DNA of 18,877 bases from assembly GCA_044870765.1 (NCBI GenBank), contig JBIOZG010000031.1, forward strand, positions 1 through 18,877. The letters are read 5' to 3'. The stretch is from Nitrososphaeraceae archaeon. GTDB lineage: Archaea; Thermoproteota; Nitrososphaeria; Nitrososphaerales; Nitrososphaeraceae. The notes under the pieces were generated by a model that worked only from the letters and a program-made list of their open reading frames with translations, searched no databases and was not told the origin of the DNA. The position numbers and the translations under genes are program-made. Of this stretch, positions 3,345-10,911 are shown piece after piece. Position 1 is the first letter of the stretch; the number at the start of each line of letters is the position of its first letter.

Positions 3345-4013
3345 ATGTTTCAGCATGACAATAAGAACTATGAAGAGTATGTTATGAACCACATAAAGAA
3401 AGGAACGACTACATGTGCTTTGACATGCAAGGATGGAGTTGTTCTAGCAGCCGACACAAGAGCTAGCGCTGGTTATTTTATTGTAGATAGAAATGTTATG
3501 AAAATCCAAAATATAGACGAACATTTAGGCATGACAATTGCTGGGGGTGTCGCTGATGCTCAAAATCTGGTCGATCTTTTGAGGTATAATGCAAATCTGT
3601 ACAGATTATCAAACAACCAAAAATTGATTCCTGTTAAATCTGCAGCAAGGCTGTGTTCTAATGTTCTCTTCAACCAGAGATACTATCCTTATTACGTACA
3701 AATAATCATGGCAGGATTTGACAAGAATAGTGAGGGTGCACAAATATACAACATTGACCTATTCGGTTCCATGACCACTGAAAGGTTTATTTCAACAGGC
3801 AGCGGCTCTCCGGTTGCATATGGATACTTGGAGTCAGAATACAAAAAAGACCTTAGTGTAAATGAAGCATACAAAATAGCAATACATGCAATTGCTGCAG
3901 CTATTAGAAGAAATTCAGGAACCGGTAATAACATCAACGCTGTCATTATAGACAAGGATGGATACCGAGAGTTATCTAAGGAAGTAAAGGACGCAGTACA
4001 CGCTGTTTATTGA
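3345..4013 (+). CDS. psmB: Proteasome subunit beta (catalytic type with propeptide)
   Basis: Propeptide followed by KKG|TTT (N-terminal Thr nucleophile), plus GVVLAADTRAS and TGSGS. The start could be a later Met. Confidence 0.96.
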   Translation: MFQHDNKNYEEYVMNHIKKGTTTCALTCKDGVVLAADTRASAGYFIVDRNVMKIQNIDEHLGMTIAGGVADAQNLVDLLRYNANLYRLSNNQKLIPVKSAARLCSNVLFNQRYYPYYVQIIMAGFDKNSEGAQIYNIDLFGSMTTERFISTGSGSPVAYGYLESEYKKDLSVNEAYKIAIHAIAAAIRRNSGTGNNINAVIIDKDGYRELSKEVKDAVHAVY

Positions 4014-5058: not shown

Positions 5059-5131
5059 AGCCTCTAGTGGGACTCGAACCCACGGCCTAAGGTTTACGAA
5101 ACCTTCGCTCTACCAACTGAGCTATAGAGGC
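5059..5131 (-). tRNA. tRNA-Thr (anticodon CGU), intronless, CCA not encoded
   Basis: Reverse complement folds into a cloverleaf: acceptor GCCTCTA/TAGAGGC, anticodon arm AAGGT-TTCGTAA-ACCTT, T arm GTGGG-TTCGAGT-CCCAC, discriminator U. Confidence 0.97.
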
Positions 5132-5265: not shown

Positions 5266-6603
5266 GTGAAAATTTCAATCTCTGGTATTCGTGGTATCTT
5301 TGGACAAGATTTGAATCTACACGCCATTATGAATTTTTCAAGATTATTTGCGTCATTTATCATTAATAATTCTACTAAAACAGAGAATAAATGTCTGGTT
5401 GCAAGAGATACAAGGCCTTCAAGTTATTTAATTTTTCAAACAGTATCAGCAGCAATTATGGAACAAGGAATAAATGTGTTGGACTTGGGCATCGCTCCAA
5501 CACCATTCGTATTTCATGAATCAATAAAGTATGGTAACGGTATAATAGTAACAGCATCTCATAATCCTTTTGAATGGAACGGTTTAAAATTTATAATCAA
5601 TGGAAGGGGAATTTTTGAAAAAGAACTTGATTTAATTCAACATGAAAATATCCTATCAAGCACGCAATTTGGAGAAATGTATACGTTAAATTCAAACTAT
5701 ATATCCGATATTCTTGAATTATTGAGAAAGAGTGGATATCTTGACAATAGAAAAAAAAGAAATACAATCGGCTTGGATCCTGGAGGAGGAGCTATATCTT
5801 CATATATTCCAAAATTATATAATCCATTAAATCAAGAATTCTACACAATTAATGACATTGCAGGTATCTCATCAAGATCTCCCGATCCTACAACAGATGA
5901 CTTGCTTGAACTAAGAAAGCTTGTAGTGTCTAAAAAGCTAGATTTGGGATTTGCATTTGACATGGATGCAGACAGGCTTGTAGTAGTGGATAAAAATGGT
6001 AACAAGCTTTCACCAGATCTTACGCTTTTATTATGCATTGCAAGTGTGTTAGACCATGGAGCAAAAAAATTTGTCGCCAGTTTAGATACTAGCAATAGTA
6101 TTAAAAACATTATAACTGAATATGGTGGATCTTTATATCATTCTAAAGTTGGAGAAGCTAATGTAGTAAAAGAAATACTCCGGTTAAATGCAGATGCCGG
6201 TGGTGAGGGAAGCAGTGCCGGGTTTATTATGCCAAAATTTGACATGTGTAGAGATGGCATATTGGCCAGCGCAATTATCTCCTCATTAAGTGATGAACTA
6301 TACAACCATTGTATGGAAATTGCATCAAAATACTCAACTATTAGATCAAAAATTCCTATGGAATCGAGTTTTCAGAAACAAGTAATAGAAAAATTCGGAG
6401 ACAAATTTCAGGAAAAGTCCTATGAAATAGTAAAGATGGACGGGACGAAAATTATGATTGATGATAATTCTTGGATTCTAATTAGATCCTCTAATACAGA
6501 ACATGCTGTTAGAATTTCAGTAGAATCAACTCCGGATAATGTTCTAACTCTTTTTAACGAAGTTAAACAAAAGGTGTTGTCTATTTATGAAGAGATTAAA
6601 TGA
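5266..6603 (+). CDS. Phosphomannomutase/phosphoglucomutase (alpha-D-phosphohexomutase family)
   Basis: Motifs SGIRG, RDTR, phosphoserine loop TASHNP, metal loop DMDADR, GGEGS and IRSSNTE. GTG start with TTAAATA at 5236-5242. Confidence 0.94.
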   Translation: MKISISGIRGIFGQDLNLHAIMNFSRLFASFIINNSTKTENKCLVARDTRPSSYLIFQTVSAAIMEQGINVLDLGIAPTPFVFHESIKYGNGIIVTASHNPFEWNGLKFIINGRGIFEKELDLIQHENILSSTQFGEMYTLNSNYISDILELLRKSGYLDNRKKRNTIGLDPGGGAISSYIPKLYNPLNQEFYTINDIAGISSRSPDPTTDDLLELRKLVVSKKLDLGFAFDMDADRLVVVDKNGNKLSPDLTLLLCIASVLDHGAKKFVASLDTSNSIKNIITEYGGSLYHSKVGEANVVKEILRLNADAGGEGSSAGFIMPKFDMCRDGILASAIISSLSDELYNHCMEIASKYSTIRSKIPMESSFQKQVIEKFGDKFQEKSYEIVKMDGTKIMIDDNSWILIRSSNTEHAVRISVESTPDNVLTLFNEVKQKVLSIYEEIK

Positions 6604-7600
6604 AAGAGAAATTATAGATCTCTTTATTTCATATTTCAATAACCCCTTACTTGATAAGGTAAAGAGAGATGACTTGGTAATTTCTCCGCTCAAAAATAGC
6701 ATGATAAAGCAAGCGATCAAAACAAACGGGATGAACATTGTATTAAAAAGTGATATGTTAGTTGAAAGCACGGATGCGCCAAAAATTATGAAACCATGGC
6801 AAATAGCAAGGAAGAGTATATTGGCCTGCGTAAGTGATTTTGCTTCCAAAGGCATACGACCCTATGCATGTCTTATTTCTATTGGAATACCCAGAAAATA
6901 TTCAAAAAAAGACATAATTGATCTGGCGACTGGATTTTCGCTTGCATCAAAGGAGTACAAAGTACCAATATTGGGAGGAGATACCAATGAATCTAAAGAG
7001 TTAACTATTGACTGTAATATGGTGGGCATTACTTCTTTATCACGTAATAAAATTCCAAGTAGAAACGGTGCAAATGCTGGTGATTTAATAGTAACATCCG
7101 GAAAATTTGGATATACTTTATCAGGATTGAAAATAATCCTATCTCACCTGCACGCAGAAAAAAAATTTAAAGCAAAATCTGTGTCGTCGGTAACGTTCCC
7201 AAAACCAAAAGTTGAATTTGGATTCCGGCTTGCAAAATACTTTTCATCTTCAATTGACTCTAGTGATGGGCTATCTTCCTCCCTATACGAACTTGCTAGA
7301 GAAAGTAACAAGGTTGACTTAATTATTAATAAAATCCCTAAACCAAAGGAATTGTGCCATTTCGCTAGTTTGAATTCCATCAGTACCGAGGATTTGCTTT
7401 TTTTTGGTGGAGAAGAATATGAAACCGTTGCTACAATCCCAAGACCAAATTTCAAGAAAATGCTCAAGGAGGCTAAAAAGCACAGAATCCATGTATTTCA
7501 TATTGGTGAGGTATTAACAGGTAGAGGAAATGTTCTCTATGAAAAAGAAGGAATACTCAAGGTTGTTAGAGATAAAGGATTTGTCCATTTTGCAAAATAA
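6587..7600 (+). CDS. thiL: Thiamine-monophosphate kinase
   Basis: Motifs NEREII, SDMLVE, VSDFASKG, GGDTN, IDSSDGL and GGEEYE. Overlaps the upstream gene by 17 nt. Confidence 0.92.
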   Translation: MKRLNEREIIDLFISYFNNPLLDKVKRDDLVISPLKNSMIKQAIKTNGMNIVLKSDMLVESTDAPKIMKPWQIARKSILACVSDFASKGIRPYACLISIGIPRKYSKKDIIDLATGFSLASKEYKVPILGGDTNESKELTIDCNMVGITSLSRNKIPSRNGANAGDLIVTSGKFGYTLSGLKIILSHLHAEKKFKAKSVSSVTFPKPKVEFGFRLAKYFSSSIDSSDGLSSSLYELARESNKVDLIINKIPKPKELCHFASLNSISTEDLLFFGGEEYETVATIPRPNFKKMLKEAKKHRIHVFHIGEVLTGRGNVLYEKEGILKVVRDKGFVHFAK

Positions 7601-7639
7601 AATTTTGCGAACATAATCTCTAAAATGTTGTTTGAGGGT

Positions 7640-8047
7640 TTATACTCTTCTACCCCTACGGCCACCGGGTTTCCTCGTTGTATCATGAGGAATTGGAGTT
7701 ACATCATCAATCCTGCCTATCCTAAATCCCGCTCTGGCAAGCGCCCTAATTGCAGCCTGAGCACCGGGTCCTGGAATTCGTGGTCCTACGCCTCCAACAG
7801 CTCTTACTCTTATATGCAAAGCGTTGATACCTTTGGTTTTTGCAATATCCGCTGCGGCTACTGCAGATTTCATTGCAGCATACGGAGATGATTCATATCT
7901 GTCGGCAGTCACATGTCTCCCGCCAGAACTAAAGGCAATAGTTTCAGCCCCGCTAATATCCGTGATATGAACTAAAGTGTTATTATAACTACTAAATATG
8001 TGGGCTACACCCCATTTGTACTGAATTACTTCTTCAACTTCTGACAT
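7640..8047 (-). CDS. rps11: 30S ribosomal protein S11 (uS11)
   Basis: Motifs [27 protein letters not shown] and [21 protein letters not shown]. Confidence 0.98.
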
Positions 8048-8216
8048 TAAATCGTTAAATTAAATTTTTCAAAGGGTGTTAAAAACCTATCCTACTTGTA
8101 TACAGGCAATTAGATTGATTCTCATATTTTAAACACAATACTAGTAACTAATAAGTCAACTAAATACACAAACAACAGCACAACTTTAATGAAGTGGATT
8201 ATCCTGTAAATTATTT

Positions 8217-8381
8217 ATGAAATGGTTCAATCATGACAAAACAGACGAGGAACCTAAGCTGATAGCTTGCAAGTATTGTGATATGAAGTTTCAGGACAAA
8301 GAACGATTAAAAAGACACACCAGGAAAGCCCACAGTGAAAAAGGTGGAGACATGCCAAAGTTCAATCTTTTTGGTAATTAA
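8217..8381 (+). CDS. C2H2 zinc-finger microprotein (54 aa)
   Basis: Translated by hand: MKWFNHDKTDEEPKLIACKYCDMKFQDKERLKRHTRKAHSEKGGDMPKFNLFGN. Pattern C-x2-C-x3-F-x5-L-x2-H-x4-H. TATA-like CTTTAAT at 8184-8190. Below the ORF track cutoff. Confidence 0.85.
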   Translation: MKWFNHDKTDEEPKLIACKYCDMKFQDKERLKRHTRKAHSEKGGDMPKFNLFGN

Positions 8382-8401
8382 AGTCCGTATAGACGATAAA
8401 C

Positions 8402-9388
8402 ATGTTTCCACTTCATGATGACACCCAGAGAATCCACGGTAGACCGTACGTAACTTACCTGCTAATTGCCATTAATGCTATAGTTTTTTTAGTAGAAGTG
8501 ATTGCTACAGCAAATTTTTCTAATGAAGTGGCAACAAATACTTTGTTCCAAAACTATGGTGCTATTCCATATAAAATACTTCAAGGTGATATATTTTCGG
8601 CTGTAAGTGCAATGTTTCTTCATGGTGGTATAGCTCACCTTATAGGCAATATGTTATTTCTGTTTGTGTTTGGGGACAATATTGAAGACAAATTTGGTCG
8701 AATAAAATTTGTCCTTTTATACATTGGTTGGGGCCTAGCAGCAGCATTCGCCCACAGTTTCTACGCAATGTCTACAGGCGAAGGAGGAATTCCTGCTATT
8801 GGTGCATCAGGAGCAGTTTCAGGAGTGCTAGGAGCATATGTTGTGCTATTTCCAAGAGCAAAGATATTTACGGTAATTGCTGCATTTTTTATTACAACGG
8901 TAAGAATACCGGCCATAGCATACATTCCTTTTTGGTTTGTAATGCAAGTTATCTTCAGTCTACTGAACCAATCTGGTGGTGTGGCCTATGTTGCACATAT
9001 AGGAGGCTTTCTCGCGGGATTGCTAACAGGCTACTTATTGAAGAACATGGTTACTAGAGATGGAATGGTAACACCGCAAATACGATATCCAACAAGTGAT
9101 CGGCAAAAAATTAGTAATATCCCAGATATGACTATTCATACTCAACCAGAGGTCATCAAAGGATCTAATTTTTATGAAATTATTGCCGAAATGCCAGGAC
9201 TGGCGTCCCAGTCAGATATACAGGCAAACTATGACCCGAACTCTCAGAGTATAAGGATATTTACCAGCGGTCCGAGAAAATATGACATAAACGTTAGAAT
9301 ATCTGATATCCAAGATGGAAATATCAAAATTGATCAAATAGAATATCTCAATGGGATAGTACGAATTAGAATATCAAAACAACTTTGA
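8402..9388 (+). CDS. Rhomboid intramembrane serine protease with C-terminal Hsp20/alpha-crystallin-like domain
   Basis: MFLHGGIAHLIGNM, catalytic GASG and AHIGG, multiple transmembrane segments. The soluble ~80-aa C-terminus has EIIAEMPG and YLNGIVRIRISK. Confidence 0.93.
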   Translation: MFPLHDDTQRIHGRPYVTYLLIAINAIVFLVEVIATANFSNEVATNTLFQNYGAIPYKILQGDIFSAVSAMFLHGGIAHLIGNMLFLFVFGDNIEDKFGRIKFVLLYIGWGLAAAFAHSFYAMSTGEGGIPAIGASGAVSGVLGAYVVLFPRAKIFTVIAAFFITTVRIPAIAYIPFWFVMQVIFSLLNQSGGVAYVAHIGGFLAGLLTGYLLKNMVTRDGMVTPQIRYPTSDRQKISNIPDMTIHTQPEVIKGSNFYEIIAEMPGLASQSDIQANYDPNSQSIRIFTSGPRKYDINVRISDIQDGNIKIDQIEYLNGIVRIRISKQL

Positions 9389-9425
9389 TATTTTTGATGC
9401 TTTAAACTTTGTAAATATATCTGAA

Positions 9426-9869
9426 TTATTTTGTTATTTGATCAATAATTGATGAATCATATAAGCTTCTACTTAATTCCCTGTATTTCTTATTAATAAA
9501 ATCTAGAGATTCAACAAGCTTCTTTGATTTTCCATATTTGAATCGAACTAACTCTTTGTGTTTCCAAAAATGCTTTGCATCTGCAACGTATATAGTCGTA
9601 AAATAATCAGGGCCAATAAGATTATCTGGTAACTTGATATTGTAGGGGAAAAGATATTCTACACCAAACCATTCGTCCCCGTCAGGATAATCATTACCGG
9701 TCATAATATCAAAATAAAGATGTAGTTTATCCTCTACAGTGAATCCTTCGTCTTTTATGAGAGGGTGTCTAATATTAGATTTGTGATAATCAATTTTTAG
9801 CAATTCTACTTCAAAATAAGTTTTTATTATTGCTCGCCTAAAAATTTCATTGGATTCCCTCAGATTCAA
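9426..9869 (-). CDS. Hypothetical protein (147 aa)
   Basis: Long open frame in AT-rich DNA filling the gap between rhomboid and tRNA-Ser. TTG start. No motif recognised. Confidence 0.75.
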   Translation of the reverse strand: MNLRESNEIFRRAIIKTYFEVELLKIDYHKSNIRHPLIKDEGFTVEDKLHLYFDIMTGNDYPDGDEWFGVEYLFPYNIKLPDNLIGPDYFTTIYVADAKHFWKHKELVRFKYGKSKKLVESLDFINKKYRELSRSLYDSSIIDQITK

Positions 9870-10014: not shown

Positions 10015-10098
10015 GCGGGGGTCGCCTAGCCTGGTAGGGCGTGGGATTGCTAATCCCATGTTCGCAAGAACTCGTGGGTTCGAATCCCACTCCCCGCG
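10015..10098 (+). tRNA. tRNA-Ser (anticodon GCU), long variable arm, intronless
   Basis: Acceptor GCGGGGG/TCCCCGC, anticodon arm TGGGA-TTGCTAA-TCCCA, variable arm GTTC-GCAA-GAAC, T arm GTGGG-TTCGAAT-CCCAC, discriminator G. Confidence 0.96.
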
Positions 10099-10366
10099 CT
10101 TCTCTTAGGGTTTTATCCCAAAATTATAAATGGAAAAAGCTAAGAATTTCAATTGTATCAGCAATTGCCAATAGCCTCAACCAAAACATCGCAGCGCTTT
10201 GATGCAAAAGTTAGAGTTTGTCCAGCAGTTATCGACTAATTCAAATAATCACTAGCTCAACTATTGCCCAAAGAAAGTATTCTGGAAATAAGAAAAATGA
10301 TGAACTAATCCTTAGAAAACAGAGTGACAATAAAAAGAAAGATATGAAAAAGGGAAGAAGAAAGGA

Positions 10367-10608: not shown

Positions 10609-10911
10609 TTGCGAAGTATTGATAGTGAATGTTGCGATATGAGAGGATTATTGGGATTTCTAATCCTCTTTTTACTCTCAAAAAAGCCAATGCACGGTCA
10701 AGAAATAGCTAATGAGCTGGCAAAAAGAAGGGGAGAAAAACCTAGCCCAGGAACAATTTATCCAGCTCTTAGGAGTCTCAAAGATCTTGGATTCCTAGAT
10801 GAAGAGAAAGAAGGCAAGATCATAACGTATGCACTTTCTCCTAAAGGAGAAAAAGCCTTTGAAATAGCCAAGAAAAGGTTCACGAAGACATTTTTGGGAG
10901 TCATCACATAA
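10609..10911 (+). CDS. PadR-family winged-helix transcriptional regulator
   Basis: LILFLLSKKPMHGQEI, SPGTIYPALRSL and YALSPKG. N-terminal CCDMRG. TTG start about 25 nt after the TATA box. Confidence 0.92.
   Translation: MRSIDSECCDMRGLLGFLILFLLSKKPMHGQEIANELAKRRGEKPSPGTIYPALRSLKDLGFLDEEKEGKIITYALSPKGEKAFEIAKKRFTKTFLGVIT

Follow-up and report, generated by a model that had tools for sequence, protein, structure and literature searches.

Soil ammonia-oxidising archaea (Nitrososphaerales) keep together a two-gene module, which consists of a gene for a 54-residue C2H2 zinc-finger microprotein and, directly downstream, a gene for a rhomboid-family intramembrane protease fused to an alpha-crystallin-like domain. 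The module is described here for the 18,877-nucleotide (nt) contig JBIOZG010000031.1 of a Nitrososphaeraceae archaeon (35.6% G+C), the whole stretch of which was analysed and is hereafter called the window. The microprotein might be the dedicated regulator of the module. The locus comprises the following features, in window positions and with lengths of proteins in amino acids (aa).

8182..8194, + strand: promoter-like box AACTTTAATGAAG with the TATA-like TTTAAT at 8185-8190, the end of which lies 26 nt from the ATG of the microprotein gene
8196..8204, no strand assigned: near-palindrome GGATTATCC between the TATA-like box and that start codon, a speculative candidate operator
8217..8381, + strand: zinc-finger microprotein gene, 54 aa, ATG to TAA, reading MKWFNHDKTDEEPKLIACKYCDMKFQDKERLKRHTRKAHSEKGGDMPKFNLFGN
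8268..8333, + strand: finger proper, C18 to H39, CKYCDMKFQDKERLKRHTRKAH
8334..8378, + strand: conserved tail, predicted to be disordered, SEKGGDMPKFNLFGN, with the family motif P-x-x-N-[PL]-F-G
8382..8401, + strand: intergenic spacer of 20 nt, between the stop codon ending at 8381 and the next ATG at 8402
8402..9388, + strand: gene for the rhomboid and alpha-crystallin-like fusion protein, 328 aa, Pfam PF01694
8807-8809 and 8996-8998, + strand: presumed catalytic codons of the rhomboid, Ser136 and His199, respectively
9146..9385, + strand: C-terminal alpha-crystallin (Hsp20-like) beta-sandwich, residues 249-328, by AlphaFold2 (AF2) strands and Foldseek
9391..9395, + strand: T5 run just past the rhomboid stop codon, a possible archaeal oligo-T terminator from reading of the sequence

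This layout agrees with a first-pass annotation of the window, which had pointed out a 54-residue open reading frame (ORF) with a C2H2 finger (C18-x2-C21-x12-H34-x4-H39, at 8217-8381 on the + strand), a TATA-like element about 27 nt upstream (TTTAAT ends 26 nt before the ATG) and a 20-bp gap to the rhomboid ATG. No other ORF of at least 40 aa overlaps 8217-8381 in the remaining frames, and an Rfam scan of the window returned two tRNAs only, with no match at the locus of the pair.

A homologue search of a 5.8-billion-protein set with the 54-aa microprotein revealed 30 clusters of homologues, with identities of 56-96% and E-values from 7.8e-30 to 5.6e-10. JGI lists several of them as 'uncharacterized C2H2 Zn-finger protein', and NCBI has one, from a Nitrososphaeraceae archaeon, as 'hypothetical protein'. 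These records mean that the family is annotated in public sources, though unnamed, so that the label 'unannotated' in the first-pass annotation does not apply to the family. A genome scan, which took one genome per species and required the peptide pattern HSEKG[GS]DM or C[KE]YCDMK, yielded 62 loci, 61 of which come from Nitrososphaerales-type archaeal assemblies; none of the 62 is from a record named as a cultured strain. Divergent homologues were missed because the scan needed these two peptide patterns, and rhomboid-alpha-crystallin genes without the microprotein fall outside a scan that targeted the microprotein. One locus, L062, was rejected as a homologue, being an accidental hit within a 462-aa ORF of an actinobacterium.

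Searching the six frames of the 62 loci and the window for the pattern C-x2-C-x12-H-x3-5-H gave 61 occurrences, every one of which is the zinc-finger gene, so that a chance occurrence of the pattern is not tenable. The median ratio of non-synonymous to synonymous substitution rates (dN/dS) is 0.06-0.07 for the microprotein, compared to 0.13-0.19 for the rhomboid (Nei-Gojobori method, pairs with a rhomboid dS of 0.05-1.5), and the window and L001 differ in the zinc-finger gene by six synonymous and no non-synonymous changes. The alignments (A2 and A3) and the dN/dS values left out L005 (rhomboid interrupted after 207 aa), L031 and L052 (contig end), L032 (N run), L058 (no rhomboid) and L062 (bacterial chance hit). 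Among the 57 sequences with a complete partner, C18, C21, F25, H34, K37, A38, H39, N50 and F52 of the microprotein are invariant, and each of F4, Y20, M23, K24, R30, K32, R33, E41, P47 and G53 is present in at least 90% of them. The small ORF is a genuine gene that purifying selection strongly constrains, and the conservation on which the first-pass annotation had made its case depend is present.

In L032, which is titled Candidatus Bathyarchaeota, the microprotein and the rhomboid are 91% and 84% identical to those of the window, respectively, the ribosomal protein S11 and AIR-synthase-like flanks are the same, and the start of the zinc-finger gene is masked by an N run; the contig looks like Nitrososphaeraceae sequence filed under the name of another bin. 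The 104-aa protein P0041 of the representative library is a two-finger paralogue, the N-terminal 44 residues of which are microprotein-like (MKWFGHHETDNKPKLLSCKYCNTKF...), with a second C2H2 finger in place of the N-P-F-G tail.

Searches by tblastn with the window proteins showed that in 60 of 62 loci (60 of the 61 archaeal ones) the rhomboid gene directly follows the microprotein gene and shares its strand, the exceptions being the false hit L062 and L058. The spacers of the family measure 14-84 nt, save for 319 nt in L025 (649-967) and 344 nt in L027 (3616-3959); the latter contains short mechanical ORFs only, such as a 71-aa GTG ORF at 3743-3958. Flanks made up of the genes for S11, an AIR-synthase-like protein and a 147-aa ORF (ORF147) are limited to the closest loci (L001-L023, L032 without ORF147, and partly L025-L027). 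In L024, L030, L048 and L061 (about 6200-9250), the upstream flank is an aspartyl/asparaginyl-type tRNA synthetase followed by an HVO_A0261_N-like protein, and on the downstream side come a 204-aa ORF and then the genes for cytochrome b and for a plastocyanin-like protein. Both of the Nitrososphaera loci that were examined, L041 and L046, have the gene for ribosomal protein L11 upstream, and L046 has a thermosome gene downstream. The flanks thus vary between clades, with at least three contexts, and the pair has survived several rearrangements. This survival is the strongest evidence for a functional link, and it bears out the synteny that the first-pass annotation had proposed to look for. 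The cytochrome b and plastocyanin-like neighbours of the distant clades are respiratory-chain membrane proteins.

In one protein of the representative library, P0062 (168 aa, C-terminal end cut), residues 1-40 of the zinc finger are joined straight to Met1 of the rhomboid, without tail or spacer, which could be a natural in-frame fusion or an artefact of assembly or gene calling. A word search of proteins of 96-2000 aa, in itself weak evidence, found no fused zinc-finger-rhomboid form.

The finger has the spacing C18-x2-C21-x3-F25-x5-L31-x2-H34-x4-H39, and both its ligand spacing and its F25/L31 hydrophobic core are those of a classical C2H2 finger; across the family, F25 does not vary and position 31 holds either L or M. 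The Pfam family zf-C2H2 (PF00096) scores it at 22.9 bits (E 1.1e-4), under the gathering cut-off of 25.2. A profile of the family matches fingers of CTCF (6e-10), ZBTB17, ADR1, BCL11A, WT1 and Zif268 in the PDB and, in a representative library of 1.84 billion proteins, finds 1091 proteins at E <= 0.001, mostly long multi-finger proteins in addition to about a dozen small full-length relatives. It also matches 6skg_Bo, a 47-aa archaeal 'nucleic acid-binding protein, containing C2H2 zinc-finger' (E 5e-4; profile positions 7-39 aligned to chain positions 10-42), from an entry that we take to be a Thermococcus ribosome structure.

The AF2 model of the microprotein consists of two short strands forming a beta-hairpin and a helix at residues 28-38, that is, a beta-beta-alpha fold, with predicted local distance difference test (pLDDT) values of 73-85 for residues 15-38; residues 1-10 and 40-54 are of low confidence (pLDDT 51-56). 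Structural similarity search using Foldseek superposed the finger on the DNA-binding fingers of ZFAT, CTCF, tramtrack, WT1 and Zif268, with a root-mean-square deviation (rmsd) of 0.8-1.4 over 27-29 residues, at E-values above 0.04 because the domain is so short. By comparison with Zif268, we take K24, R30, R33 and K37 to be the phosphate-contact position and the helix positions +3 and +6. Sequence and model together make the finger look like one of the nucleic-acid-binding type. The microprotein has neither a signal peptide nor a membrane segment. In most clades the tail has the sequence ...EKGGDMPxxNPFG, and in one clade it is ...ENEDFTPNANPFGGF; being conserved yet predicted to be disordered, it is typical of a short docking motif.

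The partner protein has a rhomboid domain (S54, PF01694) at residues 63-213, with an E-value of 4.3e-31 and 108.5 bits against a cut-off of 22.6. All 57 sequences of alignment A3 share G134, A135, S136, G137, H199, H74, H79 and N83, so that the G-x-S-G serine, the catalytic histidine and the H-x4-H-x3-N motif are all present. From the comparison with GlpG, we take S136 and H199 to be the catalytic dyad and assign the oxyanion motif, and the enzyme looks active by its sequence. The N-terminal peptide MFPxHDDxxRxHGRPY is likewise conserved, with M1, P3, D6, D7, R10, H12, G13 and P15 invariant in the same alignment. The AF2 model (pLDDT 72.9) has a GlpG-like helical core, with low confidence at residues 160-173 and a low-confidence linker at 220-245, followed by seven strands at residues 250-326 (pLDDT about 78-83). 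Foldseek against the PDB placed E. coli and H. influenzae GlpG on top, with E-values of 1e-5 to 1e-3 and target template modelling (TM) scores of 0.62-0.75 over about 200 columns.

The C-terminal domain most closely resembles S. solfataricus Hsp20.1 (4rzk_B), with an E-value of 7e-5, a target TM of 0.71 and an rmsd of 3.2 over 82 columns. It also matches Hsp14.0 (3vqm), Hsp14.1 (4yl9), S. pombe Hsp16.0 (3w1z) and Xanthomonas HspA (3gla), with E-values of 1e-3 to 3e-3. By sequence, the NCBIfam family of archaeal Hsp20 (NF041800) matches the last 80 residues at E 1.3e-4 with 21.6 bits, below its cut-off of 140; Pfam Hsp20 gave no match in the rhomboid protein at E <= 0.1, and a PDB sequence search reached Hsp26 at E 0.26. 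The Hsp20-like identity is thus weak by sequence and supported by the predicted fold, at which level the rhomboid-Hsp20 fusion proposed by the first-pass annotation is real. Some JGI relatives are already named 'rhomboid family serine protease/HSP20 family molecular chaperone IbpA'.

By analogy with GlpG, the core of which has both termini inside, and from the basic residues flanking the membrane helices, a cytoplasmic location is expected for the alpha-crystallin domain and for the invariant N-terminal peptide, and the microprotein would likewise reside there. In L005 (5184-6160), the rhomboid ORF ends after 207 aa and the remainder matches another frame, with the zinc-finger gene intact and 98% identical; the interruption is due to either a frameshift or a sequencing error, or marks a pseudogene.

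The region upstream of the microprotein gene is conserved as well. All of the 24 closest loci share the block TAGCAyAACTTTAATGAAGyGG without variation, despite near-saturated synonymous sites, and CTTTAA or TTTAAT is found at -48..-18 of the microprotein start in 26 of 26 short-spacer loci. Given the usual archaeal TATA-to-start distance, the microprotein mRNA is expected to be leaderless or nearly so, because only 26 nt separate the box from the ATG. The near-palindrome that follows reads GGATWATCC or GGATATTCC in most close loci, and GGGTAATCA or GGCTAATCA in others.

Upstream of the rhomboid gene, at -48..-18 of its ATG, a TATA-like hexamer is found in none of six loci (the window and L001-L005, its five closest relatives) with either of the two hexamer lists used, which fits a single transcript in the window and hence co-transcription of both genes there. 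The statement of the first-pass annotation that there is no room for an intergenic promoter thus stands for the window, but it does not extend to the whole family. Spacers of at least 41 nt hold a conserved A/T-rich block after the microprotein stop codon, mostly 31-39 nt before the rhomboid ATG, in the variants GACTTTAATCC, GACTTATTTCC or AATTTATCCGAT. The box ACTT[AT]3T (ACTTWWWT) precedes the microprotein start in 37 of 61 loci, compared to 3 of 132 other genes and a background of 0.010 per 40 nt. It recurs before the rhomboid in 13 of the 34 loci with long spacers (31-39 nt before the ATG) and in 2 of the 26 with short ones, a post hoc count with a box taken from the zinc-finger promoter, the 13 loci coming from few clades and not being independent. 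The same rare box on both genes in some clades suggests common control.

A count of a 'promoter hexamer' before the rhomboid in 24 of 34 long-spacer loci was withdrawn as circular, because 32 of the 164 upstream regions used for training were themselves rhomboid upstream regions. With hexamers re-derived without the rhomboid regions, the counts are 3 of the 34 loci with long spacers and 7 of the 26 with short ones, compared to 252 of 1892 coding control windows (13%), by a method that is noisy at this sample size.

Regarding the function of the microprotein, we slightly favour, though tentatively, a role as the dedicated regulator of the module that acts on nucleic acid. The promoter-like box would drive a leaderless gene for the 54-aa classical C2H2 finger, the finger would set the transcription of its own gene and the rhomboid gene by binding the promoter region of each, and the disordered tail (P-x-x-N-P/L-F-G) would contact a protein, which might be a sensor or the transcription machinery. 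Stress operons that carry their own repressor as the first gene are exemplified by HrcA and CtsR. What suggests such a regulator is that the backbone-contact and +3/+6 positions are invariant and the promoter block is unusually conserved, together with the near-palindrome between box and start codon and the precedents of Brz and AFV1p06. As the finger looks nucleic-acid-binding, this role is at least as likely as that of an adaptor of the protease. Several points weigh against it. One classical finger alone rarely gives specific DNA binding, and helix positions -1 and +2 are acidic here (D27 and E29). The near-palindrome at 8196-8204 is kept only in part, and no operator common to the zinc-finger upstream region and the spacer emerged, since the two share 7-mers in 15 of 31 loci compared to 13.9 from shuffles. 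Most relatives have a basic N-terminal stretch, KRKKK, instead of which the window clade has the acidic HDKTDEEPK. In L058, a homologue with the tail ...SNPNPFGGF is preceded by an Lrp/AsnC-domain ORF and followed after about 600 nt by a histidine-phosphatase gene, with no rhomboid within 3.9 kb downstream. Moreover, the tail, which with its invariant N50 and F52 is better conserved than any other part outside the finger, is left unexplained by a regulator and would suit an adaptor just as well.

Possible, if on the whole doubtful, is the reading of the first-pass annotation, that the microprotein is a protein adaptor or regulatory subunit that binds the cytoplasmic face of the rhomboid and tunes its substrate choice or activity. 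It would dock onto the alpha-crystallin domain or the N-terminal MFPxHDDxxRxHGRPY peptide via its tail and the N-terminal F4, in the service of membrane-protein quality control. The model case is ClpS-ClpA, in which the gene for a small adaptor lies directly upstream of that for its protease partner. Such a role would account for the strict conservation of N50, F52, P47 and G53 in a tail of pLDDT 54-56, and of F4, and the invariant N-terminus and the conserved C-terminal domain of the rhomboid offer candidate docking surfaces. Both proteins are expected to be cytoplasmic, the pair persists through rearrangements, and P0062, a single case of unverified authenticity, joins the two. In addition, membrane proteostasis is among the roles of prokaryotic rhomboids in a review table citing Began 2020 and Liu 2020 (PMC9263693). 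Against an adaptor, the invariant basic residues occupy the DNA-contact sites of DNA-binding fingers, L058 lacks an adjoining rhomboid, and the word search for fused forms, weak as it is, came back empty. Alpha-crystallin domains are known to have their beta4/beta8 groove filled by an I/V-x-I/V (I-x-I) motif, which is absent from the tail; the title of the 3vqm entry mentions a bound C-terminal peptide. A C-terminal HbYX-type motif is absent from the microprotein too. Prediction of a complex of the microprotein, the full rhomboid and zinc gave a score of 0.00, which, being obtained without controls and with an uncertain partner fold, speaks neither for nor against an adaptor.

The two roles could be combined, improbable as this is, in a regulator sequestered by the protease: the alpha-crystallin domain would hold the tail of the microprotein at the membrane, and unfolded clients would release the finger onto the promoter. 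There is a slim chance that the module works as such a chaperone-gated switch, in which damaged membrane proteins would free the finger onto the ACTTWWWT box of its own and the rhomboid genes. Sequestration would explain both the nucleic-acid-type finger and the docking-type tail, and it fits the strict pairing with an alpha-crystallin-bearing rhomboid; on the other hand, it needs two unproven interactions, inherits the weaknesses of the regulator and the adaptor, and no archaeal precedent was found. We also regard as unlikely a function unconnected to the rhomboid, for instance that of a small RNA- or ribosome-binding protein, with the adjacency reflecting a shared transcription unit only, as in glpE-glpG-glpR of E. 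coli. The match of the profile to 6skg_Bo, the divergent position beside the S11 gene in the window clade and the persistence of the microprotein without a rhomboid in L058 would all suit such a function. Against it, the S11 context is limited to the close clade, whereas adjacency to the rhomboid holds in nearly all archaeal loci and in varied contexts, which is hard to square with a chance neighbour because such a neighbour would be lost in rearrangements.

The surroundings of the pair in the window are as follows.

7640-8047, - strand: ribosomal protein S11 gene, upstream of the pair and divergent from it
9426-9869, - strand: ORF147, 147 aa, convergent with the rhomboid gene, with no Pfam or NCBIfam family
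5059-5131, - strand: tRNA gene (Rfam RF00005, 75.2 bits)
10015-10098, + strand: tRNA gene (Rfam RF00005, 55.4 bits)
10609-10911, + strand: PadR-family transcription regulator (E 2.1e-12)

On the promoter side of the S11 gene (8048-8100), the block AAATTTTTyAAAGGGTGTTAAAAACCTATCCTACTT is invariant across 24 close loci and is presumably the promoter and 5' region of this divergent gene. ORF147 is 75-99% identical in L001-L023, L025 and L027 and does not occur in the more distant ones that were examined; it is a conserved protein outside the zinc-finger-rhomboid pair. The PadR gene is kept 1.4-2.2 kb downstream of the pair in L001-L005, L011, L015, L017 and L019. A mechanical 53-aa ORF at 10041-10202 overlaps the second tRNA gene.

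To our knowledge, little is understood of what rhomboids do in prokaryotes, and next to nothing of what they do in ammonia-oxidising archaea. The parts of the present module, a classical C2H2 finger, a rhomboid and an alpha-crystallin domain, are known; what is new is the conserved module of a microprotein and a protease-chaperone fusion, on neither the pair nor the fusion of which a paper was found in open-access PMC and bioRxiv, where subscription journals are largely missing. The pair provides a testable handle on the control and targeting of archaeal rhomboids and on the role of single archaeal C2H2 fingers, and its small size (54 aa and an 80-residue soluble domain) makes the competing mechanisms separable by standard binding assays. 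If true, the chaperone-gated switch would be an archaeal stress circuit that links an intramembrane protease to gene expression via a eukaryote-type C2H2 finger, and it would signal without cleavage of a membrane-anchored factor.

Among known systems, the finger itself is closest to those of CTCF, Zif268, WT1 and tramtrack, with which it shares the spacing C-x2-C-x3-F-x5-L-x2-H-x4-H, the predicted beta-beta-alpha fold and a basic helix. The stretch H-S-E-K-G of the microprotein recalls the H-T-G-E-K-P linker by which eukaryotic C2H2 fingers are joined. However, the microprotein is a single finger in 54 aa rather than an array, with a Pfam score just under the cut-off. The rhomboid part resembles E. 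coli GlpG, B. subtilis YqgP and human RHBDL4 in its six-helix core, its Ser-His dyad and the possession of a cytoplasmic domain, but differs from them in that the extra domain is a C-terminal alpha-crystallin. Haloferax RhoII, which we take to bear an N-terminal AN1 zinc finger, is a further rhomboid to be compared, although a literature search did not confirm this feature. Like S. solfataricus Hsp20.1 and the Hsp14.x proteins, the C-terminal 80 residues adopt, in the model, an alpha-crystallin beta-sandwich; unlike in these small heat-shock proteins, the domain is fused to a membrane protease, lacks the N-terminal arm and the C-terminal I-x-I extension, and has a sequence score far below the family cut-offs.

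Two small archaeal zinc-finger proteins come nearest to the microprotein as a whole. [quoted passage not shown] The microprotein is similar in length and likewise has one classical-type finger with disordered ends. By contrast, AFV1p06 as described there has Glu as its fourth zinc ligand, whereas all four ligands are Cys or His in the microprotein; it is viral, without a rhomboid neighbour and without the N-P-F-G tail, and the same paper reports no homologue of its family in Thaumarchaeota (PMC3541406). The other is the small zinc-finger protein Brz of Halobacterium salinarum. Its gene lies immediately upstream of bop and points the same way, and the protein is required for bop mRNA; the authors of that work propose a large family of small proteins that regulate adjacent genes (PMC2253796). 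The arrangement is the same here, where a small zinc-finger gene comes right before a membrane-protein gene that has the same orientation, and it recurs in 60 of 62 loci. Nevertheless, Brz has a CPxCG-related motif by that account (PMC2253796), whereas the microprotein reads CKYC...H...H and contains no CPxCG. Brz also belongs to another phylum and has another target.

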